A stretch of DNA of 63,926 bases, counting the filler, from Hausera hauseri (Eukaryota), in assembly GCA_046269625.1 (NCBI GenBank). It is 12 parts of 12 records of this genome, joined end to end, with 100 filler letters (N's around TTAATTAATTAA, not from the genome) between each part and the next. Parts side by side here need not be neighbours in the genome. Positions count along the whole stretch, not along the records: positions 1 to 8,335 come from JBJURY010683216.1; 11 more parts are not named here. One strand, 5' to 3'. The notes beneath the pieces were generated by a model that saw only the letters and a list, made by a program, of their open reading frames with translations, had not been told where the DNA came from and ran no database searches. Shown here piece after piece: positions 1-44,290 of the stretch. The first letter of the stretch is position 1, and every line of letters starts with the position of its first letter. The translations under genes were made by a program, and so were the position numbers.

Positions 1-149
1 TGCGTGTGTGTGATATAAAGCGATGTACTTTAAAATACATCCACAAAATCGAAAAAATAATCGATATTTTTCTAATGCTTTTGTCTAAAACCGCATAAAA
101 GTTTATGTTTTTCTTGCGTCTTATAAATATTGTGTGTGACAAGGTTGAT

Positions 150-1039
150 ATCATATTGCTTACACTTACCTTTTTCTTGCGTCTAATATACTTCTTTATG
201 TGTGTGTGTGTGTGTGTGTGAAAAATCGATTTTTACCTCAAATATTTGTCTAAAACCGCATAAAAGTTCATGTGTTAAAAGTTCACATGTACGTAGAAAA
301 TTCGCTTTCCTCTTCTGTGCGTTGATGGAGATGCTTAAAAACTTTGCGACACACATCCATAATCAGCAAACGATGACCGATCGATCGAACCCGGTCATGT
401 TAAATTTCGAAGAAAAAAATTTTCCGTTTCCAACGGGCATACTCTTTGCCGATTTTTGATGTTTCTCTTCGCACTTCCGTTCCGAATCGGGGTTTTTCCA
501 TTCGGACACCGTTATCGCATAGCTCGCGTCTTGGACTTTTGTTCCATATGCTACTCGACACGGGCCGCCTTCATCAGGGCACACACATGAACATCTGTGA
601 CGTCATCGGTGCATCGTGTACCTTTCTTTCCGGTTCCGTTCGCCTACCCGCCGTTCAAATGTTACGGTACCGGTGCCGGCTCACCCATCACGTTTTCCCG
701 TTCGCCATAAACCATATGCCAGTTCTAGATCACTTTTCTGCCCTCGCCCCGTGCTTCTGCGCAGTACCTGATCGACTTCGTTCCTTCACCATTCGATGCG
801 TCTTCCGTGTCCCATAATTTCTGTAACACACATGACCGTGCACCTCTTCCTTCTAACATCCGCTTTTTCGTGCACGTCTCCTGCTTCCGGGGTGCACCGT
901 GCACCTGTGCACGTGTATTGTTTTGAAATCTCCGTGCCAGAATCTGCTCAGCCGGTGCCTGTGTGCGCATCAAGGACGCTTCGTATTGGCTGCATGGGGG
1001 GCGAGTGGGGGTGATCCAGAATCGGCCTTTTATACTACT
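150..1039 (-). repeat. Polinton-type terminal inverted repeat, copy 1 (terminus at 1039)
   Basis: The reverse complement begins AGTAGTATAAAAGG at 1039 and is collinear with 26296..27190 for about 890 nt. A 5'-AG terminus with a short tandem repeat (AGTAGT) is the established Polinton end signature. Bases 1-150 contain a partial duplicate of the inner sub-repeat (tttgtctaaaaccgcataaaag at ~80 and ~246). Confidence 0.75.
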
Positions 1040-1517
1040 CACATTGTGAGAGGTTTTGATTCTGCCACTCATGCCTGACGGTTTGCTGCTATGGCATGAT
1101 TTTCGCCAAATGAGTCGTTTTCGTGTCTGTGCTGTAATTCAGAGCCGTTTCAATGAGTGCTTTGATACTGCATAGACTGGTGTTGCCTTCGATTTTGACA
1201 CTGTTCAGAGTCAGTGAAGTCTCCTGGAACAGTGTGAGGAAAAGGTAATTGGTCGGAGTGACAGTGTCTGTTGTTGCGAGAACCGTTGCCGAATCTTTTT
1301 TAACAATGACTTTTGCATAGAGTAGTGTATCGTTCAAATCCAGGTATTCATTATCCGATGCCATAATGTTGAACTGAATATCAATGTTATCGTCCGTTGA
1401 AATAAAATCAACGGGGTAGATTTCCTCAAATGCCGCATTGTCAATAACAACTTGTGGCACCACTTTGTCAAATATACACAATTCAGATTTTGCTGATGCC
1501 GTTTGTCTGTCTGTCAA
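1040..1517 (-). pseudogene. Polinton/adintovirus major capsid (hexon-like) protein, N-terminal part, interrupted by the TIR
   Basis: AKSELCIF..VPQVVI...FEEIYPV..IQFNI...EYLDLNDTLLY..K and NYLFLTLF is the typical Polinton MCP N-terminus. A frameshifted continuation (RQA*VAESKPLTM) runs up to 1040. Confidence 0.8.
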
Positions 1518-1860
1518 TCAATCGAAACTCCTACGACGACGACGTTTGTTTATAGTTGATGAGGTCGATGATGCTCTACGGCGTTTTCTCAAGCCATTGC
1601 CAGCGAATTGTTTTTTGAATGATTTAACGACTCCCGATGCAGCGCCTTTTATTTCGAATAAGGCGTATTCCTTCAGTGATGGTAAAATCGATTTGTTTTT
1701 ATATAGTACGACCTGTGCTGTTTTTGCTGCCACGGCCCCAATACGTTTCAACAATGAAATGCTAAACGTGCCAATGTACGCAACCATCCAGAGACATACT
1801 GTTTACCAACGAAATACGACAGTTTACCGCCCTGTTGGGCTTTACTGTAAATGGAAGCGA
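1518..1860 (-). pseudogene. Basic core protein (pVII/pX-like) of the Polinton
   Basis: An upstream frame reads QQGGKLSYFVGKQYVSGWLRTLARLAF and frameshifts into ORF 1518..1787, which ends in an Arg-rich tail. It lies between penton and hexon. Confidence 0.6.
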
Positions 1861-1868
1861 TTTTAGAA

Positions 1869-2937
1869 TCAATCATACTGTTGTTGGATTCGACGGAAAT
1901 AAAGAGTTAGACTGGCTGTGGTACCGTAAGGAAATTCAATAAGGTAGCCCGCGTCACATCGGATATTCATTTCAACATTGTTTATAGATGTGGATGCCAC
2001 GGGTAGGTACATTGGATTATCGAGCTTGACAGTGACATTGTCGCCGGCAATACACTTGCTGGTTTGCGGATAAAGTTCTCGGAGTAGTGGTACATGTACT
2101 CCATCGACCAAAATCGGTTCGGTGACGTTCATGTAAATGTATATTTTATTTAGTCCCGTTTTCAGTTCGGGTTTGAGTGTTGCAACATGCGCCACCGCCG
2201 CCTCAAACCGTTGTTTTTTAAAACCCAATACCATGGCCAAAGCTTTGTCCAATGAAATGTCGACAATATCCTTAGCCAGTTCAAATTTAATATACCCATT
2301 TGCATCTGACTCGAAAACTTTAAATATCGCCTTGTATTTTTGATTTGACGAAAAGTGTTGACAGAGACGTGCTACAGATTCGCAATAAACATTGTCTCCA
2401 ATCGATACGTATGACGTTAACACCCTTTTTGTTGCATAGGTAAATTTCGCCGTTGTTTGGTAATATATGGGACTTAATCGCGGACCAACTACATATTCAC
2501 TTTTAATGTTTACCTTTGTACTCTGTATGTTTGAATCCAAATTTCTGCGCCATCTCAGAGGACTCAAATGTAACGGTAAATTCAAAATCTGCCATAAAAT
2601 ATAAGTTTCGATCTATAATAAAAACACCGATCTTGCCGTGTAAACTGTAATTTGCTTCGGTCGTGCAAATGGCCGATTCTCCAACTGATATTTTATTGTC
2701 AGTAAGTGTCAGAGGACAAGAATGTGTTTTGGTTTCAGCAACAGTCTTGTTGTACGTTATTTTCATACTACCTTTCAGTGTCACCGGTGCGTAGGGAAAG
2801 TTAAACTCCGTCATTGCAACCTCCCATTTTCCAGATAAATCCAAAGGATTGTTCCAATCTACAACGTATACACTGGCGGAATTGTTTGGATGAGTCGTTG
2901 GACAAATGTTGCTCGTCAACATTATGTAAATACTCAT
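1869..2937 (-). pseudogene. Minor capsid (penton-like) protein 1, one frameshift near 2530-2580
   Basis: N-terminus IYIMLTSN..HPNNSASVY....PLDLSGKWEVAMTEF; C-terminus IYIYMNVTEPILVDGVHVPLLR...PMYLPV...INNVEMNIR.DAG..I.F..G...LTLYFRR. Confidence 0.8.
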
Positions 2938-3072
2938 TCTGATTTAGCGGATAGACCAGGGGGCGGGGATTTTCCAAACCTACCCAAGCTGGGCGACGAT
3001 GTGGACGGCGTGGAGGCGACCGCGGTCTACAGTCATGATGTTGATGATGATGGTGATGACGCAGTTTGTTTA

Positions 3073-4137
3073 TTATCGACGACGTCGAAAATGTAACGTC
3101 AAATGTGTCGTTCACCCAAACAGAAATTTAATGGGTTCCAAAAATTCATCAAGCATATACACGGGAATACTGTGCACAATATTGTGAGACAATGATAAGT
3201 ACGTGGGTCTGAGCATATTAATGCAAACAGTTTTACCCGATGTTTTACACGTGTCAGAATCTCGTTCGACAGAAGCCAGTAGTCGTTTACGTTTTCCACC
3301 TACGAGTACGGATTCGGTTAAGTCCATTAAAATGTTGATTCTATGAAATGCTACATATAGTTGCAGTTTGTATTTGGTAAGAATAGATTGTTCAACAATG
3401 GTTTGATAGAATTAACGTTTTGCAAAACCGTGATTCCGAGCCAATAATTCATCAAAGGCAAAATATGTTACATTGTCATGTAGTGTAAGCAAAATGTGAC
3501 CATCTGCTTTTATTTCACATGTCTTTACAGCCAATGTAGCTGTTTTCTTGACGTATTCACACAATTCCAGTTCCGTTTCCATTAATAAATTGTGTGGTAT
3601 AATATAGGAGCGGAAGACTGCTTCTGACATAGTCCACTTTACAATAATATCAAATTCCGCATCGGATGAAAGGTCCAATTTTTCACCAATTATAACATGT
3701 CCACCTAACCGTAGACCTTTTGAGTGTGCATTGACTGATTAAAAACCCAATGCCTGAGCATCAGCTATAGATTTAAAATGCATTTCAATTGGATTTCGAT
3801 GTAATAGTTTCATACTGTAGTTTGAAAAATAAGAATAAACCGGTAAATATTGTCTCAAATAATTGCGAAGTGTATATCGGTTATTGTGTCGGATTGTCCG
3901 CAAACGACTTGAAATGTGGTACGTTTCTTATCGGGTAAAATAAATACCACTGTTCTGACGTATTGTCATTGGTGAAAATTTAAATGTGAATACCGTCAAA
4001 GCCACTTCCCAGGCTCCCTGGCGTAAATCGACCGATTGGTCCAAGTGCATGGTAAAGTGTGCAGCGGTATTGTCATTGTCGTCATGTTGTGATAATGATT
4101 TGTTACTATCAACTAACAAGTAAATGCTGCTGCTCAT
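3073..4137 (-). pseudogene. Minor capsid (penton-like) protein 2, several disruptions
   Basis: N-terminus IYLLVDSN....NTAAHF..HLDQSVDL.QGAWEVAL; C-terminus DLTESVLVGGKRKRLL...PTYLSL...IPVYMLDEFLEPIKF..G*TTHLTLHFRRR. The two-block pattern matches penton 1. Confidence 0.7.
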
Positions 4138-4189
4138 TGAATGTGTGATGCAAAAATCCAACTCGGTGCAGTGTATCCGTGCCACTTAT

Positions 4190-5123
4190 GAGATATTGTT
4201 TATTCAAACCTTTGCCACGTGAACGTACCTGCAGTTCCTGTCCGTAGAATTTACCGCGTATTTCCTCACCGTTTTCATCCTCTAAAACGTACATGACAGG
4301 TGTTTGTTTTGTGTTAATTGCCACAATGCGGAAAACCTCGTCGCTTCAGTTCTGGTTGAAATTCTTAATGAATGGCGTCGTACTTATTTTCGAAATACGT
4401 ATGTAGGCACCGATTTTATATTTTGGGCGATTAATTGCCTGTCCTTGTGTTCGGTTTTGATAATGCCACATGTCCAAATTATCGATTACGTCAACCGGGC
4501 GCATTCCGTTGATTCCACGATGTGTCGAATAATTGTATGCATGAATAATATCCGGCAGTACATCTGCTCAACGTTTGTTGCCTTGTTTCGTAAAGAATTT
4601 GTTTAGGTGACCGCGCAATATTCGATTAAATCATTCAACGAGTGCAACCTTGTATTGGGAAAACACGGAGTAGCGGTTTACGCCAAACCGTATCAAGACC
4701 GCTGCAACGTGGGCGTTGTAGAATTCCTTACCCAAATCCGTTTGTACATGCTTCGGCTATTGTTGTTGTTGTTTTATCAGTGTCTGAACAGCGTCGTCAA
4801 TTTCTTTACCGGATTTAGATTTCACGGCAATTGCACGTGCAAAACGACTAAACACACCAACGCATATTAGCACATACCGATACCCATCGTTTATTCTAGC
4901 GTACGGAATCATTTCCATTAGATCCATTTGCCATACGTTATTTATACCGCAGCACGATATGCACGAGTTCGAAACCGCCTTCTTATCGGTTTGTTTAGGC
5001 TGTATGCTAATTGTTTTCCGAGCCAACGCTGGGTCTGTTGCCGAGTTTTTTTACAGTTTTTGCCAGTTTGTCGACGCCAGTATACCCTACGGGATGATAT
5101 GGATCGAACCACACGTTGCCCAT
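4190..5123 (-). pseudogene. Polinton retroviral-like (DDE) integrase
   Basis: WFDPYHPVGYTG, VWQMDLMEM...YRYVLICV.VFSRF, VQTDLGKEFYN, VE*FNR.LR and the C-terminal YVLEDENGEEIRGKFYGQELQ, spread over several frames. Confidence 0.85.
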
Positions 5124-5266
5124 CGTTGTCGTCGATGGTGCCGGTTTTGCTTGCGTTACAACAATTTGAACAAAACGTAAATGAAAGATACTGTAAACTG
5201 GGACAGAAGAATGAAAACCATGCACCCATATCGCAAATCACCATATACTTACCGCCATTGTTTATA

Positions 5267-5590
5267 CTAAACTGTTCCCCCAATGAGTCCACCCAGTAAT
5301 GACGTGACAATCGGTAGAATTGCACCAATGAATCCTCCGTCTTGCTGGTACATGATATCTCGTTTCAGTCGTTTACTACGAGCTTTGGAAAGGCCAATGA
5401 GTCGTTTTCTATACTTTAGTAAATTCCGCTTTCCACTACCAATGTCAACGTGGCCCACAACGATATTGTACAAAATTTTCATCAAATCGCCTACTACAAA
5501 TTGCTGAAATGATCGTAGCATTTTTCGCTTATGTCTCGTAGGTGCCTTGAGCAAAGCAATAAAGTACGGCTGACTACGTTTGAATCGCAT
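5267..5590 (-). CDS. Small basic virion core protein with a GGF cleavage-like motif and hydrophobic C-terminus
   Basis: Intact 107-aa ORF, K/R-rich, ending QQDGGFIGAILPIVTSLLGGLIGG. This is the pattern of the small ORF next to the ATPase in adintovirus-like elements. Confidence 0.65.
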   Translation of the reverse strand: MRFKRSQPYFIALLKAPTRHKRKMLRSFQQFVVGDLMKILYNIVVGHVDIGSGKRNLLKYRKRLIGLSKARSKRLKRDIMYQQDGGFIGAILPIVTSLLGGLIGGTV

Positions 5591-5734
5591 TTGCGTCTAG
5601 TTGCTGCTGCTGTTGTTTGAAGCACAGAATTGATTAATCGCTTGACTGTAGCGGTTCATTTAAATATACGTTTCTTGCCGGACACCCGCTTGGCAGGTTT
5701 ACGTTTAACAATTGTTTTCCAAAAATTCTTCGTT

Positions 5735-6398
5735 TTATCACTATCGTGTCGTCGTCGATTTTCGAATGTGTTTATAGACACATACGCCTTTCTGATTGAA
5801 AATGTCCGTTCGTACATGCATGTCATCGGTATACTGTTGTATAAAGTCAATGAGCAAGTATCCGTGTGGCTCGGTGGTAGCTTTATGATATGCATCTATC
5901 AAGTAGGCTCGGTTGTAAGGAAATTTTTGTCGTGCAACATAATCAATCGCGGGGATTTTTGAACAACACCAAATAGTGTACGTTTAGATTTTTTGTTCGA
6001 TGCTGTCCGACTTGATGGAACATGTTTAGCGTAATAAAAATAACTGTCACACCACGGTGCCGTGCAATCTTTGTGAACAGGTTGTTGAAGTCCGATTGTT
6101 TCGTGGCTTCCTGAAATATATCGTCAATGACAATAATGTCACCGTTGAGTAATCCCTCTGACCAGTTTTCATCAAACCCATCAATTACCGTTATCGTCGA
6201 TGATTTCAATTTACAAAATTCCCGTTGTGTCAAACCGGACTCACCATCATCACCAACAACTTGATGCCAGTATATGTGATTGTACCGCGGTAAATGGAAC
6301 AGGTCAAGGTAATTCTGCAATAGTTTACACACAAAGTGTGTTTTTCCACTTCCACTGGGGCCTACAATCTGGAAAATTGCATCATTCTGCAGCTTCAT
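5735..6398 (-). pseudogene. A32/FtsK-like packaging ATPase
   Basis: Walker A GPSGSGKT, Walker B IIVIDD, LFTKIARHRGVTVIFIT.N.F and YLVLFKNPRD. A frameshift near 5945 leads into AY..AT.EPHGYLLID. Confidence 0.9.
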
Positions 6399-6481
6399 CT
6401 AAATAATACAACCTTTCCTCACATGATTTGTTTATAATCATGTTACATATAAATAGCTATAGTATAAACACTGTTTCCATA

Positions 6482-6942
6482 ATGTTAGCTAATATCAACT
6501 ATCGCGGACGTGATACCGAGTGTATTAATACACTACCATTTAATCAATGGAAGCCGAGGCAGTATGTCTTCAAGTGTACACCGGATTTTACGTGTATCAT
6601 ATTTCAATCGGGCAAGTGTCGAATAATGGGTTGTCGCAAACCAATCACAATTAACAACAGTAAACTACTGCCATTCGGAATTGTCATTGACCAAATTTAA
6701 TCAATAACGGTAACGACTCAGTTTGACTGCCATCAATCAATCTGTACAAATTAGCAATGGCCACTGAATGTACGTATGAACCCGAACTGTATCCTGCACT
6801 GCGATTGATATTGTTTTGCCCACTTTGTTTCAATGTGTTTAGCAGTGAAAAAATTGTTGTACTCGGTATTCGGACAGTGGACCATGAACCGATTATTAAA
6901 TAAATTAAAAAGCATATAAACAGTTTTAGTGAATCAAAATAA
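6482..6942 (+). pseudogene. TBP-like gene, copy 1 (premature stop at 6698, frameshift near 6725)
   Basis: Repeat 1 is TCIIFQSGKCRIMGCRK. After the disruptions the sequence reads LPSINLYKLA...CTYEPELYPALRL....LCFNVFSSEKIVVLG, matching the TBP motif YEPELFPGL..R......LIF.SGK.V.TG. Confidence 0.8.
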
Positions 6943-6959
6943 TGTACGATATTATTCCA

Positions 6960-8335
6960 GCAGTAATGACTGTCGATCCCAATAATATAGTCGATGTAGA
7001 TAAAATGACTGATACGATGTTGAAGGTAATTGCTAACAAAGTAACAGCAGAAAGGATGAATGAAATTTTACAACAATTGTTCTTACTAGCCCAAGATACT
7101 AGTCCTGTAAAAAAATAGCCAGGACAGTTTTAGCCAAAGCTACTGAAGATGAGAAAGGAAGAAATGAAACTATCAGGATAACGGTAAGAGAAGGAAACCA
7201 AGATATGAGGGTCATCAGGATGAACGAAACAGATGACATACAAACTCTACGAGACAAGATAGAGGAGTTGAAACCATTTTACCAATGAAGTCCTTATGGA
7301 TTAAATTATTATGGAAGGACATTATATAATTATGATAGGTTATTGAGAATTGGATGTAGAAGTGAGAACTAGAATCCGATAACTATAACCGAAATACATC
7401 CAGAGGCGAGAGCACGGGCAACAGTGGATAATGTCTTAAGGGAAATAGAACCACAGGGAGTAGAAGAAAACCCCGCAGGCGATACGCAAGACGTCACAGT
7501 TCAGACAGAAGCTAACGGAAGAGGTAGGCCAAAAGGAACGAAGATAAGTGACATTCGCAATAAGAAAGAAAAACGAAGAAATAGTAAGACGCTTATTGTT
7601 AGCAGGAACAAATGGTACTCTCGAATCGGTGGATATAGACCCATTACTAAGAACTCTACTGGCTAAGTTACATATGTCATTTGCCTCATTTGATATGCAG
7701 GTAATAATCCCAAACGAATTATTCACAATATTACGTAATATTATGCTACAAATAAGTTGACAGTTCTATGAGAATTTAGATGAAGAACGGATTAATGAAT
7801 TGCATCAATTAAATATCTTAGAAAAATGTTCGCAACCGGAATCGCGGGAGAGAAAGCTCAAACGGCTATATCCTATCTCCTCTATAAAATAATAGTAATT
7901 AATCACCAGACTCAAAATCTAGAAGAAATTGATCGAAATATAAAGACACCCGTAAAGATTTTGAAAGAAACGTTAGGAAATTGGGTTCAATGTAGAGGTG
8001 AATGGCTGACCAGCCTAATGAAATATATAGTGAGGTCATGGGAACGAGAAAGATTAATAGATACGTCAATGGCGACGCAACCAAACACCTCTAGACCAGG
8101 TATAACAGGTACGTCAATAATGGAGATTCTTCAAATTCTCCTAATAACGTAATTATTAATGCCAAAAGCCTTGGGTATAGTAGCTTATGATTGCTCTAAA
8201 CCTAGTAAAGGACAAAAGTATTCTCTAGTTGATTTAAACAAGTGTTCAGAAGACGACCCGGAACAGCTAACAACGACAAGTGGTCTTACCTACTGGGTAT
8301 ATCAAGAATCGGAATTCATAAAAGCGAAAATTAGA
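6960..8335 (+). mobile_element. Fragment of an env-bearing retroelement-like polyprotein (Ubl domain, AT-hook, internal signal peptide, glycoprotein N-terminus)
   Basis: Ubl-like pattern at 7170-7395, GRGRPKG near 7520, then hydrophobic ILQILLIT*LLMPKALG followed by IVAYDCSKP...YSLVDL.KC. Homologous to 43160..44290. Confidence 0.6.
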
Positions 8336-8660: not shown

Positions 8661-9854
8661 TACACCAAACTAGTTAACTGACGAAAGAGATGGGGAGTTG
8701 AGATAGTGGACGGTGGTGTATTGCAATATGGATGACGGATTCAATAGACTTATAAAATATACGTCGCCAGCACATATGTATTGTTTGTGATTACCAAATT
8801 GAAAAATACGTGAAGATAAATTGTAGTGGCAATTCTTATGATGATACAAATTTTTCTCTATGTAAATAGTATATAAAGTTTGTATATGAAATTATACATG
8901 AATATTGTTTCAGTTTTTACTACGAATTGAATTGTAAATGTAAATACTAAATACAATTAGATATCAAGTTTTTCAAATCGATTTGTGTTTTAAAAATAAG
9001 AAGTCATATATGTTGGTAAAAGAAAGAAAATTGAAGAAAATGATTAAAGAAGATGAAATAATAAAGAAAAAAAAAAGAAAACTTCTGAGCAAACATGATT
9101 TGGCATCTCAGGGAGAACATCTATCAAACAAGATTATCAAAATTCATGGATAAAATATATGTATATCCGATATTATACTCAATTCAAACTCAGTGAAGAA
9201 CGAAAGTTCGTGTTAAGAAAACTGATGTGCAAATGATGAATTTGATCACAAAAATGCCGAAGTTACACAACTCAATGGAATATTTTAACTGTATTGAGAT
9301 TACAATTATGCTGATTAAAAACTATTTCAAACGATTATTAAACATTGCGGAATATATCTGTATATAATGTTTTTCTGTTGAAAGTCTGATGTATAGTATT
9401 GAAAAAATGGTTACTGATTGGGAACCACTGAAAAATAAAAAATTAAATAACGATTCTGACGGAATTTGCTCCAAAGACAAAATTGTCGCGGCTTTCAGTG
9501 AGTGGAGGAATTGGAAAAAGCAATTGAATTGTGTTTTTGACGTCTATGCTCTAACCACATTCCCAAAGGTTAAAAGCCAAATATTGTTGTCAGAAAAATA
9601 TAACGGAGTATGTCAAACCCTGTGAATGGATATTTAAATTAGTTATGCGAGTATATGTCGAACAATATCTCTGTTTAAACAAATGGGATTACCATCTACT
9701 GTGGAATTTTCCTTGTTATTCTGCACATATTGAAAGATTAAAAAAGATAAATCTCATTGAATTACAAGGATTGAACAAAATATCAGAACAATATCTGGAA
9801 GAGAAGAAATTTCTGGATGTATTATATGTATTATGTACATTATATGATATATTT

Positions 9855-10117
9855 ATCAATGCGGTAGATAGATTTCTGGATCAATCAACCGCTGTTATTT
9901 TACATTCATTCGAGACATCATTGAACATCGTAGGATACTTCAAAACGATGTACATGCTCGATCCACCCTCAGAACGACCGATTGTTAAAAAGGAATTTGG
10001 TCCGTACTATGAAAATAGTTACATATGCTCTATGAAGAGGTTGATAATTGTAAAATCGTCTATGATAGACAAACTGAATTGTTGGAACCAAATATTGCTC
10101 CTGGAATGCCATCCAAT
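9855..10117 (+). pseudogene. Probable axonemal dynein heavy chain N-terminal fragment
   Basis: FK.MYML....ERPIV...F..YY, then a frameshift into LHMLYEEVDNCKIVYDRQ.......PGMP, resembling the DHC_N1 region of beta-type dyneins. Confidence 0.5.
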
Positions 10118-11101
10118 ATGATTAAGTTAAGAATATCATCTCTGGAAACGACAATTGTTAATCATGGAAAACAAAAATTCCATAACGTTGAAAATGCAGT
10201 AAATGAAGTTCGAAATGGATCTACAATTCATATTGGAAGATTTGGGTTGTGTGGAATACCTGAAAATTTAATTGCTGCTATTGTTAAAACTGGGGTCAAA
10301 GATTTGACGATTGTTGGAAATAATTGTGGTACCAAGGATTTTGGAATTGGACTTTTGATAAAAAATAAACAGGTAAAACCTATCACTGCATCATTTATTG
10401 GAGAGAATCCAGAAACAATTTGACAGTTTCTGAATGGAGACATTGAAATTGAATTTTGTCCCCAAGGTACAATTGCGGAACGAATTAGAGCTGGAGGTTC
10501 GGGCATTCCCGCCTTCTACACTCCAACGAGTATAAGTTCTCTGATTGAAAGCGAAGGCTCGCCAATTAAATACTCAAATGACGGAGTACTCCTTCTATCT
10601 AGAAAACCAAAAGAAACACGGGATTTTAATGGTGTAAGGTATTTATTGGAATCAGCACTTGTTGGTGACTATTCTTTCATAAAGGTATGGAAGGCCAATA
10701 AAATTGGCAATTTGATATTTCCAAAAACGGCTAGAAACTTCAATCATCCCATGTGTAAAGCAAGTAAAAGGACTATACCTGAAGTGGAAGAGGTTGTTGA
10801 AGTTGGCGAATTTAATCCAGATCAAGTTAATATGTCTCGAATTTTTGTTGATCGGATAATTATAGGCAAAAAATTTGAAAAGCGTATTTCACGTAAAGTG
10901 ATAAAGGAGAAATTCAAATCAAAAACGGTAGAAACAAATGAAAAGAAAATACACAAAAAATTGATAGCAGAGAAAATAATCAGACGAGCAGCCGTTGAAT
11001 TGAAAGAAGGGATGTATTTAAATGTGGGAATTGGAATACCAATATTACTACCAATTTACATTCCAAAAGGTATGAACGTTACTTGGCACAGTGAGAATGG
11101 T
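10118..11101 (+). pseudogene. OXCT1: Succinyl-CoA:3-oxoacid CoA transferase, N-terminal part, intronless, one in-frame stop
   Basis: FGLCGIPENLI, PQGTIAERIRAGGSGIPAFYTPT, KTARNFNHPMCKA and NVGIGIP. It ends exactly after the catalytic SENG motif. Confidence 0.92.
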
Positions 11102-11745
11102 CGCGTGCTAGATTCTGAACGATTTTGTGAAAACGTGAAAAAAGTTTATGGAGAAATCAATTTTCCTGGTGATGATAGAACTAATCAAATATATATGTTC
11201 AGTGCTATTTTTCCCACAGCAATTCAAGATTTAGCAAGGAATTTGTTGAAAAGCTATTTAATTTTCGCCGTTTGTATTATCGAGTTTGCTAACAGTGATG
11301 TTAAACAAGAAGTGATCTGTGTGAAGCCGAAAGAGAAATTGAATGTAGCATTAGAATATGTTAAAACGATTCCCGATCAGAAAATGTTGGTGTTTGTTGA
11401 AAGTAAAAGAATATTTGACTTTTTGGATATAAAATTGGGTTACCTGGGTTGTATGGTAACAACAATCCACGGTGATTGTGATCAACTGCAGAGAGAATCA
11501 GCATTGAATGACTTTAAAAGTGACAGAGTTACATATATGGTTACAACGAACGTTGCCGATATTTCTAAAGTTGATGTCGTTGTCAACGCTAACATGACCC
11601 AAGAAGATGATACATACGTTCATAGTCAGTCGAACTGGTCGATGTAGAAATATTGGATGGGCTGTCAGCTTCTTTGATAATACAAAGGGCATCAGTTTTG
11701 CTTCTGGTTTAATCGGTAGATTAGAAGAAGTTAATCAAGAGGTCG
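11102..11745 (+). pseudogene. vasa: Vasa/DDX4-like DEAD-box helicase C-terminal fragment
   Basis: MFSA.FP..IQ.LA, LVFVESKR, TIHGD..Q.QRE.AL.DFK and TYVH/RTGRC.N.G.A.SFFD. The ARGL of motif V is deleted, and there is an internal frameshift near 11625. Confidence 0.85.
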
Positions 11746-12089
11746 TCATTGTGCCATTAACTGAAGTAACTATTGAAAATCCGATAGCGGCTGAAAATAT
11801 ATTAAACCGCGGTTTAAAGAATCGTCATATTGGAACTACGGTAATGAATAGAGAAAGCTCTCGAAGTCATACAGTCTTTACAATTTCACTGGAAACACGT
11901 CATAAAGACGGAAATGTTGATAATATCATGAGGAGTCATTTACATTTGGTGCATTTGGCTGGTAGCGAAAAACAAAAGGATGCAAAAACCGAAGGGCTAC
12001 GTCTAAAAGAAGCTATAAATGTTGACAAATCTCTATATGTATTAGGACGAGTTATCAGTGCCCATGTTGAACTGACTAAAGGAAAACAC
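11746..12089 (+). pseudogene. Kinesin motor fragment (KIF15/kinesin-12-like), switch I and II only
   Basis: MNRESSRSHTVFTI and LVHLAGSEKQKD.KTEGLRLKEA.N.DKSL..LG.VI. There is no P-loop. Confidence 0.9.
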
Positions 12090-12632
12090 GAAGCTCTGCG
12101 GCACAATCGTCTAAAACTTGTTCAAATATCGACGAATTACAATTACATAAAGACGAAATCAAAAATGGTGGAATACCCATTGATTGCCAAGGCAGTAGCA
12201 GTATTTGACGTACAGATTGAACCAGCCATTAAAAGTCAAACGTGGGGAGATGATATAGCAGTATTTTTAGACGAAAGTTTGAAAACCATCTATGAATTGA
12301 AAAGACGTTTATTTATGACCCAAGATAATTTCGAAGTGATCAAAGATTTGTTGAGTCAGTGGAAAGGTATGCCTCTGTATATAAGAAAAGATCGAAAGAA
12401 TGATACAACATTAAACCTGGATGATAGACAGAATTCAAAACATAATCGGTACAATCAGAATTCAGCAGTTGGTGTGAAAATCCAGCCATTAGCACAAGGT
12501 AGTTGTCAACCTTTCGAAGTTAATGAAGACTCAACAGACGATTGGTCGAACTATATCGACTTCATGGAGGGCAATATTACTAATGGATTCCTCACCACAA
12601 TAAAGTGTAATTTACTATATGTAGTCAAGCAA
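12090..12632 (+). pseudogene. Axonemal beta-type dynein heavy chain (DNAH9/11/17-like) N-terminal fragment
   Basis: YN......VEYPLI, W..MPLY.RKD.K...LNL..R......RY......G.KI and W..YIDF....I.NGF...I.C.L.Y. Confidence 0.8.
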
Positions 12633-13290
12633 ATCAAAAATGAAAGTAAAAGTCATAAAATATTTAGTAAAGGAATTGATTTTGTTGCAAAATCTCGGGA
12701 AGAAGGTGATAATTCGTTGCCTCCGAGATCGGATAAAAGTAAATTAGCGGGACCACCAATTGCCAAATATAAAAAATTTGCTCCAAAGGTGTCGATAAGG
12801 ATTAATTCTAAATTTGCTAGCTTTGAAAATATTAGAAATATCGATTATAATCCACTTTCTGATCGTAGTTTCACGAGCTCTCAGGCTATTCGTGATACGG
12901 CCTATATGAAGTGGTATCTAAATAAATTGAAAGAAAACAAATTCAATATATTGAATTTACAAAAACGAATCAATTCTGAGGAAAATGAGAAGACAAAGCA
13001 ATCAAAAATAGAAGATAATAAAGTTGTTTATGAAACTTGGTCCAAAAACAAACGAAAGTACTTTTTAGATTTAAAGAAAAAGAGATCTGGGAACCAACAA
13101 CCCACTGATAACAAAAAAAATAAATCTACTGCACTTGCCTTTAAAATCTGGAAGAAAAGAAAGATGAGTATTTGAAGGAACAAATGAAAAAGGATATGGA
13201 AAGTAAAAAGGAAAAGGAAAAGAGTAAAAATTTTGCTAGAAAAGTGAAACAGCAGCGGTCGAAAGAGGGTGTCGCTGAATGGGAAAAAAG
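12633..13290 (+). pseudogene. MAP9-like K/E-rich coiled-coil fragment
   Basis: Repeated AY..WY..K / VYETW.K.K / AF..WKK.K / EWEK motifs in a charged coiled coil. Confidence 0.45.
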
Positions 13291-14528
13291 TCTCAGAGTA
13301 CTTTGGGATAATATCTGTGGTAATGAGGAGATTATGTCAACGTTGAAGCAGATGTATCACGACCGGTTAGATAATATTAGTGGTGCTGGTAATAAAGCAG
13401 TGACAAATCGGCGGAAAAAAGGTGCTAGTGAAGTGAAAAGGTCGGATTATCAAGATAAGTTTCCGATGGAACCTATTGGGAAACATTCCACAATGCAACC
13501 GATAACAACGAAAAGCTTATCTTTATGCACTTCACCAAAGAGTGATAACCATATCGGTTTGTATTCCATACGAAGAAACAAACATACTGAAAGAAAATTC
13601 AGTTGTAGTACTGATAAAACAGCAGACGAAACAAGAAACTGGACGATCTTGAAGAACTTCTTTCTTTATAAAGACGTAAAAGAAAAAGGTAGTTGGCAGA
13701 ACATGCTTGAAACTTACCTTCTAAATTCCGAACTATCGGTTGAAATGAATTTGGGAATGTTAACGGCTCTCTTCAGAGCCACAATTATTGATTACGACGG
13801 GGTTCCGGATCCCCTTAAAAAATCCGAAAAAATCGAACTTTTTCTGGAAATTCGATATTCAAACAGGAATTATCAGAAAAAAATCAGAATCTACTATCCT
13901 GGACGAACGAGAACCCAGACCAATAACAAAAAATGCTTGCGTTTAATTCTATTCGCGCTAATTCAGGCTGTGTCAAAAGTAATGAAATCATGACCAGGAC
14001 TACGAAAGATCAGGTTAAAGGAAAGAATGAGCCAATAAACAAAAAAGGTCAGTTTTTCTGCATTTCTGTATATACTATCGCTGGCCGTCTGCGCTCCCCG
14101 CCTTAAGTTCCCTTTTGATAATTACTGCGTTAAAACTTATTGGGGAAAATTACATAACTTTTATATTACTGTTCTATGCCATACTAAAATAAATGTAAAA
14201 ATAAGCTTATTCTCCCTTTAGAAATCGTCTCCGAAAGTAATTGTACAAAGCATTAGATTTAAGGTCTTCACGGACGCCTTATCGTACTTATATCGCGCCA
14301 GACCTATAATAATATTGCAACAGATAGTTGGAAAAATTAAATACAAAAAAGTAACCAACTATCTGTTGGAAGGTGTCATCCGTTAAATAAATACTATATA
14401 ATTAAAAGATTATTGAACCTCCATGTAGNNNNNNNNNNNNNNNNNNNNNNNNNNNNNNNNNNNNNNNNNNNNTTAATTAATTAANNNNNNNNNNNNNNNN
14501 NNNNNNNNNNNNNNNNNNNNNNNNNNNN

Positions 14529-26295: not shown

Positions 26296-27190
26296 AGTAG
26301 TATAAAAATGCCGGTTCTGGCTCACCCCCCCCAAGCAGCCAATCCAAAGCGTGCTTGAGGCGCACACCCGCACGGACGGACAGATTCGACGACGTAGATT
26401 TCAAAAAACACACCATACACGGTGCATGGTGCACCCCGGAAGCAGGAAAAGTGCACGGAAAAAGCGAATATAAGAAGGAAGTGGTGCACGGTCATGTGTG
26501 GCACATAGAAATGATGGGACAGCAATGGCGCATCAAAAGCAGAAGGACCGAAGTCGATGGAATGTCGGGCGGAAGCAAGCGGCTCGGGCAAAAAGTGAGC
26601 CAGAACCGGCATATGGTTTATGGGGAACTGGAAAACGATGAAGGCGAGCGGGCAGCGGTCCTACGGCAATTGGGCAGCGACTAGTCGAACCGTACCGGAG
26701 CGGAAGGTGCACGATGCACCGATGACGTCACAGGCGCCCGTGTGTGTGTGCACTGATAACGGCGGCCGGTGTCGAGTCGCATATGGAACAAAAGCCCAAG
26801 GCGCGGGCTATCGCATGGCGGTGTCCGAATGGAAATCGGCCCATCCGGAACGGAAATGAGAAGAGAAACATCGAAAATCGGCAAAGGGTATACCCTATGG
26901 AAACGGAAAAAATTTTTGCCTCGAAATTCAACATAACCGGGTTCAATCGATCGGTCATCGGTTACTGATTATGGATATATGTATTGCAAAGTTTTTACGC
27001 ATCTCCATCAACGTACAGAAGAGGAAAAACGAATTTTCTACGTACATGTGAACTTTGAACACGTGAACTTTTATGCGGTTTTAGACAAATATTTGCGGTA
27101 AAAATCGATTTTTGTGCGTCACACACATACGCATAAAAATATATATAAGGCACAAGAAAAAGTAAATGAGAGCAATAATATGATTTCAAC
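26296..27190 (+). repeat. Polinton-type terminal inverted repeat, copy 2
   Basis: Starts AGTAGTATAAAAATG at an abrupt switch from AT-rich to GC-rich sequence. Collinear with the reverse complement of 150..1039 and with 33615..33907. Confidence 0.8.
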
Positions 27191-27605
27191 AATAAATTAT
27201 CGTGGTTATATACGTGGAAAAGTTGAACATTTACAATTCAATCAATGGAAACCGCAACAATGTGTACTAAGATTGGACAAATATACTTTGATTATTTTCA
27301 AAAATGGTAAATGTAGAGTAATGGGTTGTAAGCAACCAATAGATGAAAGGGAAATATGTATTACCAAGTATAAAATTGTAGTCATCATTGAAAGAATTCA
27401 ATCAATAACGGTTACATGTAAGTTGGGTTTACCATCAATAAATTTATATAAATTGGCAGGAAAAATGGATTGCATATATGAACCAGAATTATTCCCTGCT
27501 TTACGAATAAATATGTACAGACCGTTGTGTGTAAATGTATTTTCCAATGGAAACATAGTCATTCTCGGATCACCGGAAAGGCAGCGACCAATAGGAGTGA
27601 AATAA
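27180..27605 (+). CDS. TBP-like protein, copy 2 (141 aa, open, final helix apparently replaced)
   Basis: Two TBP repeats: TLIIFKNGKCRVMGCK and IQSITVT..L....INLYKLA....CIYEPELFPALR......CVNVFSNGNIVILG. Confidence 0.85.
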   Translation: MISTINYRGYIRGKVEHLQFNQWKPQQCVLRLDKYTLIIFKNGKCRVMGCKQPIDEREICITKYKIVVIIERIQSITVTCKLGLPSINLYKLAGKMDCIYEPELFPALRINMYRPLCVNVFSNGNIVILGSPERQRPIGVK

Positions 27606-27675: not shown

Positions 27676-29138
27676 ATGACCGATTTAGATTGTAACAGTA
27701 GTGACGATAACGAACCGATTGGAGGAGTGAATACTGAATCAATAAATGAACAAATGCAAAGCCACAACTATTGCATAGCAATAGGGCGCAATTATTTTGA
27801 GAACAACAAAGACGAATTTATGAAATATTTCGAGAAACAAGTAATTTATATTTATAATTGTTTATTATTAATTTTATTAAATAGGTTACTTATGTATGTG
27901 GCCAACTTGAAATAAGTTAAAACGGATGGGAACATTATCAGCTATACATAAACTTTAAAAATGCCAAGAAAGTATCAGCAGTAAAGAATAAATTTCGTTG
28001 CAAATTTCCGCGAATAATTTTTGCGAAGAAAGTGGAAAGTGCCATGCAGTATGTCATGGACCCCAAAAAAAGAATCGAAAATACGACCTTCAAATGGCCA
28101 GATAATGGTGAAGGCAAGAGAATAACTAAATATTATTCCAATGACGTAAACGAAGATGGCAGCATTAACAAAAACAAAATTGGAGATTATTCACATGACG
28201 CAAAGAAGGAAAGGATATTGATAGATGCTTTATCGCAATCTAGCTTTGACGAGTGCATTTCACACATTGAAAGTGAAATGCCACTTGAATTTTGTTATCA
28301 TCAAAAACAGTTCGAAAGTTATGCAAGTAAGAAATACATTAAAGAGGATGACAAATTCTTTAGATTTAATTGGAGATATCCGTTAATAAATTTACAGAAC
28401 AAAATGAAAAACGTTGCTTTGATTGGACCACCTGGAATTGGCAAAACTGAATATGCCAGAGCTCATTTTGAGCATCCCCTAATGGTCAATAGTAGACAAA
28501 ATTGGGGAAGATACAAACATGGCTACCACGATGGCATTATTCTCGATGATGTACCCCTGGCAAACTTCGATCCACTAACGGTCAGAGGTATACTTGACTA
28601 CATGCATGACTATACTATCGATATCAAATATGGTCATAGCTTCATACCGCATAATGTTAAAAAAATTATTTGTAACACAGATCTAAAAACGCTATTCCCA
28701 ATCAAATCTACCGAAAACGAAATAGAAGCAATAATGCGACGTCTCGATATATACGAATTCAAAGAGACGATATTCGTAACAACAAAATATCCAACATTAC
28801 AATTGGCTTTACCTAAGCCAACGTTAGATTACAATGGAGTCAAAGTACGAAGTTCAGAGTGGTTGAAAAATACGGTTACAAAATGTAAACAACCGGTTTC
28901 CGATAATAAACTTGTTCAAAGTACGTCGAATGAAGTTAATCAAATAAACGAAATGAAAGATACATTGAATAAATTGATGATTCAAATGAAATGTAGGAAA
29001 CGAAAATGTAATGATGATGAAACTCTATCTACAACTACAACTACGAAACATTCGAAACGTGACAGTGATTGTGATGACGTTGATATTGACAAAGTTTTTA
29101 TCAGTAGTGATGATTCAAATGATAATAAATGTAATTGA
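27676..29138 (+). pseudogene. rep: CRESS-DNA-virus-like Rep (HUH endonuclease + SF3 helicase), two exons (27676..27840, 27885..29138), single stop at 27918
   Basis: After removing a 44-nt GT..AG intron: motif I-like NYCIAI, motif II GQLE...G.EHYQLYINF, motif III-like QYVMDPKK, Walker A GPPGIGKT, Walker B IILDD, motif C IICN and Arg finger AIMRRL. AATAAA follows the stop. Confidence 0.88.
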
Positions 29139-33614: not shown

Positions 33615-33907
33615 AGTAGTATAGAAATGCGGTATCTGCATCATCCCCCCACCCCAATGCAACTAATACGAAGCGTGCTTAATGCGCAGACAGGCAACGG
33701 GTTTGTCAATTCGGCGACGGAGATTTCAAAAATCACATGGGGGAAAGGTACATGGTGCACCCCGGAAGCTGATGAGGTGCACAAAGAAAAAGCGAATGTT
33801 AGAAGGAAATGATGGATGGTGACGTGTGACGCATAGAAATGATGGGACACGGATGACGCATCAAATGCCGAAGGAACGAAGTCGATCGGATGGAGCGCAG
33901 TGGCACG
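33615..33907 (+). repeat. Polinton-type terminal inverted repeat, copy 3 (cut by the contig end)
   Basis: AGTAGTATAGAAATG...aatacgaagcgtgctt...ggtgcaccccggaagc, collinear with 26296 onward. Confidence 0.8.
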
Positions 33908-34031: not shown

Positions 34032-37000
34032 ATGTGCGGTTCCTATGCTTATTGCACATCCAAAGCACATAATCCGCAACAGTGCCATGAAACGATGCAT
34101 CGGTATTATGGATACAAATCCAAAAAAATCCAATATTATATATGTCCAGGATGCGAAACTGTATGCGGTGCAGATTACATACAGTTCTGTTATGATCACA
34201 AACATGATTTGAGTCACTTTGCATCAAAATCAAAGAACGCCATCTATAATGAGCAACATAATATTCACGCATCTGCTTCGCAGTATGATGCTTCGCAGTG
34301 TTCTGCCTCGCATTATGCTGCTGAATCTGGTGCAGCATCTGCGAAGCATATTAGAGAATTGAAACGCGCAGCCGCATCATGCGCAGCAGCATCAGGCGCA
34401 GCAGCGTCAGGCACGACTACATCAGGAGTTGTGGCTCCAACAAAAAGTCAAAGACAAAGGTCAGTTAATGCTGCAGAATTAAAGAGAAAAGTACGCAAAT
34501 ACGTCATTGATGCAGCTGGTCAAACAACCATCAAGGATTTTCTGGAGTACAAAGAGGAATAAACAATAGTGATTTGCCAGGAAAACATAGCTGAGCTCAA
34601 AGCCCTTAAGGTCAATATGAAACTGGAGGTCTCATACATCAATGTTGATGGCTAACAATCCAATAGGGCCTTCAACACCAAAAAATAGGCCATTTTAGAA
34701 GCCACCAATATAGTAGAACTACTTCATAAAGAGCATGCGAAGCTGATCCGCGAAGTCGGAGAGAGCCAGGATAAGAAAAGCGGATGGACCCTGGCATCTA
34801 TCGGGAGATTTCTTGTGTATGTTCAAAAGTACTGTCCAATGCGGGGCAGTTCATATATTCAGCTTCCGAAATGAATCGCTAATAGAAAAGCATGCATGAA
34901 TGTCATTAATGATGACAAGTGTTTCATATATGCCATTTTGTGTAAACTCGTACGGGATCAAAAACATGCAGCAGATTGAATTTGGCTATATAATAATCTG
35001 AAACACAACTATGACTTCCAATATATTAAGTTCCCGCCATCCATAGATGAAGTAAAGAAGTTCAGTCAAATCAACAATATATCCATCAGCATCATTAGAT
35101 TGGATGATGAGGACAAACTCTATCCCCTGCAGATATGCGATACTGAATTGGCAAATCATAGGGACATGTTCCTACTAGATGATGGTGAAATGATGCATTT
35201 CTCCTGGAAAAAGAACTTCGAACATCTAGTCAGATCCCAAATAACGAAACATACGGAAAGTATCGAAATATGTAAAATATGCTTGTCCCATTTCAGTGGT
35301 TATACTGCAGTGGACAAGCTTTCACAGAACAAGGTGTACTGCAACAACAATTACTGTATCAGTCCAGAATTTCCACAGGAGGACTACATTGAATTCAAGA
35401 AGTTCGAGAAGAAGCACAAGGTCCCAATAGTTATCTATTGCGACTTTGAAGCAATCCTGCGTCCAGTTCACAGTTCTCAACAGAGCAGCACAACTGCATA
35501 CCAATATCATGAAGTCTCATCGTATTGCATGTATGCCAAAAGACTGGACAGTGAACCATATTGATGTAGAGGTCCATATGCAGCATCCCATTTCATAAAA
35601 CGACTCGAAGACATGGCTCATAAGCTTAAAAACATGCTGCAGCAGTATAAGGATAATATAAGCATGTCGTGGAAACAAGAAGAAAAATAGCGCAACGCAA
35701 CAGAATGTTACTTGTGCGACAAGTTCTTCACCAAGGAAAATTGGAAAGTCAAGAATTACTGCCATTTTACAGGCTAATATCGGGGTGCAGCATGCAACAA
35801 CTGCAATATTTACTGCAAAACATGCACATATGTGCCTGTAGTGTTCCATAATCTCCGTGGCTATGATTCCCATTTCATTGTTCGGGAACTGGGCAGTACT
35901 AATAAAACATTGAGGTGATCCATAATAGTGAGGAAAAATACATCATAGACAGTTTCCGTTTTATGTCGTCTTTACTGGATAGTTTTGTGAAGGACCTCCA
36001 TGCAGAAGAACTCAAGGAGGCGAAGCGGTTCTTTCCCACTGCATTTGACCTAGTCAACAGGAAAGGCGTGTTTCCCTATGGCTATATAACTTCATGGGAA
36101 ACACTGGATGAAACCTCACCGCCGGCCAAGAAGGACTTTTGCAATATACTCTCTGATTGCGATATCAGTGATGCTGACTACATGCATGCTCAGAACGTCT
36201 TGCATGCATTCCAATGCCGAACAATAGGGGAATGCATTGATATTTACTTCAAGACGGACGTGCTGCTGCTGACAAATGTCTTTGAGAGTTTCAGGGATGT
36301 TACAATGAAGAGCCATGGATTGGATCCGGCTTATTTCTTTACAGCTCCAGGGATGAGTTGGGAAGCAATGCTGCGCTATAATGGTATTAGGCTGCAGATC
36401 ATTAAGGATTATGATATGATCCTCATGCTTGAGAGAGACATTAGAGGCGGAATATGCCAGGACATTCATCGGTATAGCGAGGCCAATAACAAGTCTATGG
36501 TCGAATACGACTCAACAAAGGAATTCTCATATATATCATACCTGGATGCCAACAACTTGTATGGATTGGCAATGGGCGCCCCATTGCCATATGATAACTT
36601 CAAATTGGTCGCGAATCCTGAAAACATGCCTATACTAGACCTAGATCCCACTAGAGATACGGGGTACATACTGGAGGTAGATATGGAAAATCCGGCTTCT
36701 ATCCACACAAGGCTTTTCCTTCCGGAGAGCAAATCTCCGCTCCATGGAAAGCATAGAAAGCTGCTCTGTCATGTGGGTAATAGGGATAGATTTTTAGTCC
36801 ACTACATCAATCTCCAGCAGGCAGTTAGACATATACTTCGTATTACTAAGATCCATAGAGCCCTGCAGTTCAGCGAGTCCATGTGGCTGCATTCATACAT
36901 AGATCTCAATACGAAGCTGCGGACTAATGCCAAGAACGACTTTAAGAAAGATTTATTCAAACTATATAACAACAGCGTTTCTTGCAAGACCATGGAGAAT

Positions 37001-37722
37001 ATCCGCAACAGAATTTACATCGAACTGGTATCTGAGTGGAAGCGGGCAAAAAACTTATTGCCAAGCCTAACTTCCATAGCAGCACCGTACATGCTGAGAA
37101 CTTGGTCAGCACCCATATGCTGAATACAGCATTGCTATTCAACAAGCCCATGTACGTGGGTATGGAAATATTGGATCTATCAAAGACCTTGATGTACAGA
37201 TTCCATTATGATGTCATGGTCCCCAAGTTGAAGTCCATGCACCTGATGTATATGGATACTGATAGTTTCATCTACGAGATCCATACAGAGGACATTTATG
37301 AAGACTTTGCCCAATTGGCTCAACACATGCATACCTCGGACTATCCGAAGGATCATTCCAACTAATCAACTGCCAACAAAAAGATCCTTGGGAAATTTAA
37401 AGACGAGGTGAATCGGGCAATAATATCGAGATTTGTAGCTCTCGGATCTAAAATATATGTTCTAGATGCATGTAATCATATCAAAAAGAGAGCCAAGGGC
37501 GTTCAAAGGGCTACATTGACCAAGAAGATCAGTTTTTAGGACTACGTGAGAGTTCTGAGGGAGCAGACTCACATCATATCGCAAATGAGAAGGATCCCAT
37601 CTAGGGATCATAACATCCAAACAATAACACTGCTTAAGAAAAGCCTAGATAGAATAGATGACAAGAGGTAGATCCTGAGAGATGGAATTTATACACTACC
37701 TCACGGACATGTGGCATTGTAA
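34032..37722 (+). pseudogene. polB: Protein-primed family B DNA polymerase (Polinton/adintovirus type)
   Basis: SGWTL, GSSYI.LP, Exo motifs IYCDFE, FHNL.GYDSHF and DVLLL..VFE.FR, an inserted Cys/His module (CYLC...CHFTG.YRGAACNNCN), RKGVFPY, Pol A YLDANNLYG.AM, Pol B KL.NNS...KTMEN and Pol C YMDTDSF. Many stops and frameshifts. Confidence 0.93.
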
Positions 37723-43159: not shown

Positions 43160-44290
43160 CAGGAGGGCATCACATTGTTCATTCTTTTTCGGCCGTTTTT
43201 CCTATCGACTTATTCAATTTTCCTTTCTTTAATAATGTAAGATGGCATCGATTCGAAGATACTTTCCAAGTCATTTTAGATTTTCCAGTATCGTATTTCC
43301 CGTTGTCATATTTACATTAACTCATAGTTGTCATGCGTTTAGTTTGCGAGTCGAATAATCCTTCATATTTCTTTAATTGAACTTGATAATCTTCGATGGC
43401 GGCTGTTCTTGGAGCGATTGTGCCTCCAACATCGTAGTTCACTCCTTTGCAAGTACCTTCCATTCTATCTATTCTTCCAGCTTTGAAGATCCGAATATAT
43501 TTTATTTTGCTTCGTACTGCCGGTATCTGTGGGTTTGTATCGTTCTGACTCCGATTTTAAACGCATATTGGCATTCTGCTTGTTATATTTTTATCGGTTG
43601 GAAAGTGTTGTTGGTTCAAGAATAGCGGTTTCACGAGTAATACGCACAATTGAATAAGAAGAATGATTTCTTTACGTAACATTCTTTAATTTTAACCTTG
43701 ATGAATTCCGATTCCTGGTAGACCCAATAACTGACCGTTAGTTGTTAGCTGTTCTGGGTTAGCTTCAGGGCATTTTTTTAGATCCACCAAGGAGTACGTT
43801 TGTCCTTCTTTAGGCTTCGAACAATCATAAGCCACAATGCCCATGGCCTTAGGCATGCAGATGGATGCTATCAATAACAATTGTAGTAACTCCATAACTG
43901 ACATTCCACCTAAGCCCTGTTTTATAACACTAGGTTGTATTGTGGTTGCTCTTTCGTATGGTCCTCCTTTTGGTTTTATTCTACCATTTATTAAACTTGG
44001 TACCCATCCTCCTCTGCATTGCACCCAGTTTTCTAAAGTATTGCATAAAATTTTAACCGTTACTTTATATTCCTTTCAATTTCCTCAAGATTTTGCGTCT
44101 GATAATTGATAACTATTACTTTGTACAATAAATAGGCAAGAGTTGTTACAACTTTTCTCTAGTGATCCCTGTCGCGAATATCTTTTCCAGTATATCTTGT
44201 TCATGTAGTTCGTTAATTCTTTCTTCATTGATATTCTCGTAAAATTGTCTACTAATTCTTAGCATGCCGTTACACATCGTCTGGAACTTG
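43160..44290 (-). mobile_element. Second copy of the env-bearing polyprotein fragment
   Basis: QCRGGW...MELLQLLLIASICMPKAMGIVAYDCSKP..GQ.YSLVDL.KC.E..PEQLTT closely parallels 7980-8335. Confidence 0.7.

Follow-up and report, generated by a model that had tools for sequence, protein, structure and literature searches.

What is a TBP-like gene doing beside the packaging ATPase gene of a Polinton? How Polintons switch on their capsid and packaging genes bears on whether these elements have a real viral phase. An earlier note on this DNA had proposed that the product of the gene, which we call mini-TBP, could be either a late-gene transcription factor or an antagonist of host transcription, acting at the bidirectional promoter that separates the two genes.

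The window, by which we mean the whole stretch of Hausera hauseri DNA that was analysed (63,926 nucleotides, filler included), consists of unplaced contigs of about 4-6 kb with N44-TTAATTAATTAA-N44 linkers at 11 places; genes separated by a linker are thus not real neighbours. The gene in question (copy 1) lies on the first contig, 1-8335, which carries the following features.

144..1039, minus strand: probable Polinton terminal repeat inside the capsid gene, with a sharp AGTAGT start; 80% identical to 26296-27190
1040..1505, minus strand: putative major capsid gene, N-terminal part, interrupted by the repeat; 46% to L018
1521..1873, minus strand: small gene; its 3' end contains the ATAAAC box belonging to the gene that follows
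1890..4143, minus strand: two tandem penton-like (minor capsid) genes, broken; tblastn 26-37% to a 14-locus cluster
4187..5117, minus strand: rve integrase, broken; Pfam rve 5e-6; 52% to the L062 integrase
5270..5593, minus strand: small basic virion-type gene; 50% to a cluster present in 21 loci
5741..6398, minus strand: A32/FtsK-type packaging ATPase, broken near 5946-5950; Pfam Pox_A32 3e-5
6399..6481, no strand: spacer of 83 bp between the ATPase and mini-TBP starts
6430..6436, minus strand: TATAAAC box, 37 bp before the ATPase ATG
6448..6455, plus strand: canonical TATA box TATAAATA, 34 bp before the mini-TBP ATG
6463..6469, plus strand: second TATAAAC, 19 bp before the mini-TBP ATG, which is unusual
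6482..6942, plus strand: mini-TBP pseudogene (copy 1); Pfam TBP 6e-6 on the C-half

It can be seen that the A32-type ATPase and the rve integrase, both recognised by Pfam, are on the same decayed element as copy 1, and judged by this gene content copy 1 belongs to a decayed Polinton/adintovirus module. Gene types of this kind also suggest an animal host (PMC8502044). The ATPase pieces are 68% and 52% identical to the L014 ATPase. Three of the other labels are our assumptions from adintovirus naming: we take 1890..4143 to be penton-like (minor capsid), 1521..1873 to be pVI/pX-like, and 5270..5593, which is without a database match, to be 'cupiennin-like'. A Pfam scan of the penton-like genes gave no informative match, and homologues of the putative major capsid gene gave weak Pfam matches only (Capsid_N 0.057, DJR-like 0.0026; 2/9 homologues scanned). 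Neither end of the copy 1 element was seen in the window, and the repeat within the putative capsid gene suggests that one Polinton has inserted into another. The head-to-head arrangement described in the earlier note, with starts about 80 bp apart, was confirmed (ATGs at 6482 on the plus and 6398 on the minus strand, 83 bp apart). Further along the same contig, 7743-8333 is related to 43687-44265 (68% identical), and the latter matches a Monjiviricetes fusion protein (6e-5); this likeness suggests an envelope-bearing retroelement to the right of copy 1. At 9555-13990 (plus strand) there are long open frames with CoA-transferase, helicase C-terminal and kinesin pieces in series, as if gene fragments had been captured or fused.

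Copy 1 is a pseudogene, a point that the earlier note does not make, being disabled by stops at 6698-6700 and 6901-6903 and by a frame change near 6727-6733. Its C-half matches Pfam TBP at 6e-6 (26.4 bits; curated cut-off 22.9) and its N-half at 0.011; against the intact relative P0003 the identity is 79% for one of its pieces and 69% for the other, and copy 1 departs from several sites that are otherwise nearly invariant. The features elsewhere in the window that bear on the two copies are as follows.

26296..27190, plus strand: probable Polinton terminal repeat, immediately before copy 2; starts AGTAGT, with a TATA-like box at 27142
27180..27605, plus strand: mini-TBP copy 2, open frame; Pfam TBP 9e-17, 61 bits (cut-off 22.9)
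about 33615-33907, plus strand: third copy of the ~900-bp repeat, with a sharp AGTAGT start
34671-37710, plus strand: protein-primed PolB, broken, on a separate contig from copy 1

Copy 2 is 77% identical to the relative P0001 and its predicted model has a pLDDT of 91.8; its homology stops at 27569, ahead of the last helix, and both window copies are thus damaged. The copies have no blastn match to each other at E 1e-6, yet they are alike as proteins. All five motifs that the earlier note had listed as shared are indeed in both (6494-6800 and 27192-27500). Part of the LPSINLYKLA match is probably accidental, because in copy 1 its start coincides with the frame change and differs from the closest intact relatives, and FNQWKP.Q is a trait of a subclade, absent as a family-wide motif. 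The same note had placed the two copies in different Polinton contexts, which holds for copy 1, lying as it does among Polinton genes; other Polinton genes were sought on the contig of copy 2 and none was found there. For copy 2 the Polinton context comes from the adjoining ~900-bp repeat starting AGTAGT, which two public runs cover deeply together with the TBP gene, as a single block. AGTAGT is the commonest Maverick end motif (PMC8097293); the window holds three single AGTAGT ends, and neither paired ends nor a 6-bp target duplication was seen on these short contigs. Given the repeat end and the joint read cover, we dropped the idea that copy 2 lies outside any Polinton. Beside copy 2, at 27921-29135 (plus strand), an open frame of 405 aa has the look of a rolling-circle Rep, with a Pfam Gemini_AL1_M match at 1e-3 and weak matches to circovirus Rep; it has low read cover, falls outside the deeply covered block and is probably an endogenous ssDNA-virus gene.

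Relatives were collected by means of copy 2 (140 of 141 candidates), with identities of 33-77% among the 120 matches listed. The residue alignment used 107 of these 120, 13 mostly partial ones being excluded, and the median length of the aligned sequences is 154 aa. A profile search at the level of 50%-identity representatives gave at least 150 matches, 136 of them new and nearly all with the family signature; Asn stands at the L205 site in 122 of the 126 new members that have a residue there. As judged from sequence, well over 100 clusters at 50% identity have a common mini-TBP signature. The TBP fold supposed in the earlier note is borne out by the Pfam TBP match above cut-off and by a predicted two-lobed saddle: the model of the intact relative P0005 (pLDDT 97.1) aligns with human TBP at Z 13.9 and rmsd 2.5 A over 146 of 149 residues, at a sequence identity of 20-21%.

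A further reading is that mini-TBP was captured from host TBP recently and evolves neutrally, and it could appeal to the damage in both window copies and to a tree whose comparison rows were 5 cellular TBPs and 16 relatives of a large-virus TBP, with no animal TBP or TRF2. However, in that tree (80 rows, of which two fungal outgroup rows are truncated at 134 aa) the 59 family rows are set apart by a branch with 100/100 support, at a distance of about 2.5 changes per site from the TBPs sampled. The median dN/dS of mini-TBP is 0.18 (range 0.05-0.33) for 19 disjoint pairs that were preselected at >=60% identity, which favours low values; 0/80 pairs were at 1 or more, and the element ATPase gave 0.09 (18 pairs). 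We conclude that intact relatives are under purifying selection, and are not drifting neutrally. The shared signature of so many clusters also argues against a retrocopy, and both 'recent' and 'neutral' are refuted by the low identity to human TBP, the separate branch and the dN/dS, so that we give this explanation virtually no credence. The claim of the earlier note that this is an element-borne family, not a host retrocopy, was upheld on the same grounds together with the Polinton linkage described below. The sampled rows show a separate clade and point to no donor; archaeal TBPs stand first in one profile search and TBPL1 ninth in the atlas, and neither fixes the origin. Viral contigs yielded one unrelated large-virus TBP (L081) and two distant ATPases.

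Linkage was scored on the best 80 of 165 metagenome matches. A hallmark Polinton gene (ATPase, integrase, capsid-type, adenain, PolB or PLA2) was found in 41/80 mini-TBP loci, and in 20/22 of those of 4 kb or more, in agreement with the proposed co-occurrence. PolB was beside the TBP gene in 8/80 related loci; that of the window sits on a different contig. TBP and ATPase identities co-vary across 23 loci (rho 0.6; 0/2000 permutations), the related loci not being mutually independent. Mini-TBP is carried by elements of the PLA2 type and of the pVI type alike, and in the TBP tree a 99/93 branch separates the two types. Where both genes were present (29 loci) the order was tandem, TBP then ATPase, in 26; it was divergent with genes between in 2, and in 1 the ATPase was far upstream. 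As the head-to-head layout is not conserved, we conclude that the bidirectional promoter of the copy 1 locus is incidental, and the special role assigned to 6399-6481 in the earlier note is not supported. The layout does occur beyond copy 1, since a contig of run X3 spans the spacer and one of run X4 joins the same two starts. Four runs gave similar cover across the integrase, ATPase and TBP genes and a steep drop after about 7020, depth here being no copy number.

Some neighbours recur in these loci. L036:667-1236 and clusters c2, c16, c19 and c20 are frequent beside the TBP gene and mostly lack the late box described below; c16 matches giant-virus clusters with DUF5871 or DUF2738 in 10-17% of members (atlas 0.92-0.95), and proteins with this likeness may, we presume, be ssDNA-binding proteins. 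Cluster c4 (e.g. L043:5843-6352) is a conserved gene of ~165 aa in 21/80 loci, often just before TBP; it has a DxE motif like that of a DEDD nuclease (by eye; no Pfam match) and a late box before 12/20 members.

Promoters were compared from -70 to -15, taking the first Met as the gene start, between 135 de-duplicated ATPase, virion, protease, integrase and c4 genes and 53 TBP genes. It can be seen that ATAAAC precedes 83/135 of the late-type genes (dinucleotide shuffles: mean 7.1, max 12), including 21/28 related ATPase genes (shuffle mean 1.5), and just 3/53 TBP genes (shuffle mean 1.6). An ordinary TATA box was found before 23/53 TBP genes (shuffle mean 2.9), and was also somewhat enriched before late genes (16/135; shuffle mean 6.1, max 12); CCAAT showed weak enrichment before TBP genes (12/53 against 6.2 expected). 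ATAAAC also came top of an open ranking of 6-mers (68/99). The boxes peak at -50 to -30, with 0 reversed, and 49/70 begin with T, giving TATAAAC, one base off consensus TATA. TATAAAC precedes 0/53 related TBP genes. The decayed element itself has 8 sense and 3 antisense copies of ATAAAC between 1041 and 6480. The gene upstream of the capsid gene codes 10/10 of its Ile-Asn pairs as ATA AAC, against 23/260 elsewhere, and we conclude that the box is kept at the DNA level within the overlapping coding region. Three Polinton contigs were picked by their ATPase: L084 has the TBP gene and four boxes, and L085 and L086 have neither, so that the control for co-occurrence of box and TBP consists of two incomplete contigs. 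All three lie inside bacterial metagenome-assembled genomes and are probably binning contaminants.

The other side of such a pairing is the protein, for which yeast residue numbers were assigned from the 1ngm alignment and structural register. Three of the four DNA-wedging Phe residues are kept (F116, F190 and F207, each 107/107) and the fourth, F99, is Pro in 106/107; of the central Asn pair N69 is kept in 105/107 and N159 is Ser in 106/107. Further substitutions are V71N (104/107), V122R (105/107), T124M, I194R and L205N (each 107/107), and V161 to Thr or Ser (106/107). The lost wedging Phe and central Asn could weaken DNA binding. The glutamates of the YEPE motif are preserved (E186 in 104/107, E188 in 107/107), a pair which we take to be human E284/E286. 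With the exception of I194, the changed sites are DNA-contact positions in Table 1 of PMC12529657, and TFIIB binding has been assigned to two C-lobe glutamates (PMC7221094). An N-lobe patch on helix H2 is the binding site of TFIIA, TAF1, Mot1 and Brf1 (PMC7221094), and helices H1/H2 of the N-lobe are missing in both predicted models (copy 2 and P0005). The median linker is 22 residues in the window's clade, 29 in distant members and 34 in cellular TBP; because distant members keep longer linkers, the helix loss is specific to the clade, while the altered DNA face extends across the family. A predicted complex with archaeal TFB scored 0.53 against 0.00 for the best control (runs agreeing in >=98% of contacts; partner pLDDT 88), where complex scores of 0.60 or under are a mark reached by 18/157 solved complexes and by both passing mismatches. 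As TBP-TFB is an already solved pair, the model shows likeness only, and it lends weak support to such a complex.

Compared with cellular TBP/TRF and archaeal TBP (PF00352), mini-TBP has the same predicted two-lobed saddle and keeps F116, F190, F207, N69 and the YEPE stirrup glutamates. It differs in being about 150 aa long, 19-26% identical and encoded by a mobile element, in the change of F99 to Pro and the invariant polar or charged changes of the DNA face, and, in the window's clade, in the apparent lack of N-lobe helices. KSHV ORF24 is a proven late-gene TBP mimic with polar residues at V122, T124, V161 and L205 (PMC12529657, Table 1), and the beta/gamma-herpesvirus vTBPs to which it belongs use host Pol II and a late variant TATA box, as proposed here for mini-TBP. 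ORF24, however, is a multidomain protein of 752 aa; it makes direct contact with Pol II, retains all four Phe residues and is predicted not to bind TFIIB (PMC12529657), whereas mini-TBP is a stand-alone domain with the TFIIB stirrup kept. A search for longer, ORF24-like forms of the family gave 8 matches, of which seven are named as cellular proteins and one has no name; this counts weakly against such forms. The TBPs of Nucleocytoviricota, including poxvirus VITF-3, are virus-encoded TBP folds that have lost the N-lobe regulatory signature, as in the window's clade, but they have diverged at TFIIB-binding positions and mostly occur with a viral TFIIB (PMC7221094, PMC12917281); known viral TBPs have been described as diverged at both the TFIIB and regulator surfaces (PMC7221094). 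Mini-TBP instead keeps the glutamates. VITF-3 works with a viral polymerase, whereas no TFIIB or polymerase Pfam match was present among the 82 ORFs scanned (of 728 called) from mini-TBP loci.

With adintoviruses, Polintons and Mavericks the elements themselves have in common an ATPase, an rve integrase, adenain, PLA2X-type and small basic virion genes, pPolB in some loci, and probable AGTAGT ends (PMC8502044, PMC8097293). That TBP lies outside the canonical Polinton gene set, as had been stated, holds in the literature found, except that a TBP-like gene is labelled in the Fig. 5 legend of Starrett et al. (2021, PMC8502044) for MELD viruses with adintovirus-like PolB. In the open literature searched, this paper (preprint 10.1101/697771) was the only one to link TBP to these elements. 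The text of PMC8502044 and PMC8097293 does not describe a TBP family or a promoter box, though figures and genome maps may show more; the supplement text of Starrett et al. has no TBP, TATA or TFIIB, and TBP is not mentioned in the text seen of 10.1101/2022.05.25.493380. Viral TBPs as such are already known, and the mini-TBP family adds one that keeps the TFIIB-binding glutamates and goes with a putative late box.

We think it moderately probable that intact mini-TBP is the late-gene promoter factor of Polinton/adintovirus elements, borrowing TFIIB and host Pol II. The first of the two roles offered in the earlier note has thus gained a matching box, although the role itself is one that we infer. 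Under this proposal host TBP would transcribe the mini-TBP gene early, via its ordinary TATA box; mini-TBP would then bind the YATAAACA box ahead of the packaging, capsid and integrase genes, and its C-lobe stirrup would recruit TFIIB and thereby host RNA polymerase II, which is named as the partner because a polymerase gene was not encountered. In the window's clade, TFIIA, TAF1 and Mot1 would have lost their docking surface along with the N-lobe helices, and mini-TBP would in this way be freed from host control. The wider proposition is that the element runs a two-step transcription programme in which a small two-lobed viral TBP and the YATAAACA box form an orthogonal pair that predates the split of the two adintovirus virion modules. 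We regard this as evenly balanced; on such a reading mini-TBP would rank among the smallest natural two-lobed TBPs.

A potential explanation for the box that would not need to invoke recognition by mini-TBP is that host TBP/TFIID or another host factor, such as a forkhead protein, reads it, with mini-TBP being a general booster or a stand-in when host TBP is scarce. ATAAACA resembles, as we understand it, a forkhead site, and most of the boxes are a single base from consensus TATA. The late box has the form YATAAACA, and we take the C(-25) TATA variant to be TATAAACG. According to its title, PDB entry 1qn3 holds wild-type TBP bound to the C(-25) variant, so that with this assignment host TBP can bind the late box, at least in the crystal. 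However, the box is strictly oriented, the classic forkhead GTAAACA precedes 1/135 genes, the two TBP-less (and incomplete) Polinton contigs lack the box, and the DNA face of mini-TBP is altered at invariant positions; we regard reading by a host factor as rather unlikely. We consider it distinctly unlikely that mini-TBP is the host-transcription antagonist suggested as the second role, that is, a decoy that holds TFIIB or blocks host TATA boxes without productive initiation. Such a decoy would fit the retained TFIIB glutamate pair, the loss of the N-lobe regulatory surface in the window's clade and the early-type promoter of the gene, but it explains an element-specific box less well, an integrating element itself relies on host Pol II, and the invariant DNA-face residues indicate a specific target. 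It might also be that mini-TBP binds element DNA for a non-transcriptional job, for example to bend the genome when it is packaged or replicated, acting with the ATPase, which it directly precedes in 26/29 loci and with which it co-diverges. For such a job the TFIIB glutamates would be needless, in many loci mini-TBP follows the capsid-protease block or lies at the end of the element, and the box stands at TATA distance from start codons, so that we hold this to be very unlikely.

Copy 1 itself is dead, and the value of the locus lies in the mini-TBP family to which it leads. This family would be a natural minimal TBP in which the TFIIB contact has been kept, the regulator surface dropped and the DNA face changed, the opposite pattern to that of giant-virus TBPs, which diverged at the TFIIB contact. 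An element-coded TBP with a matching box would be a concrete switch for capsid and packaging genes and would provide a sequence mark for late genes. If the proposed role is true, integrating animal DNA viruses that have no RNA polymerase would direct their own transcription in two steps.
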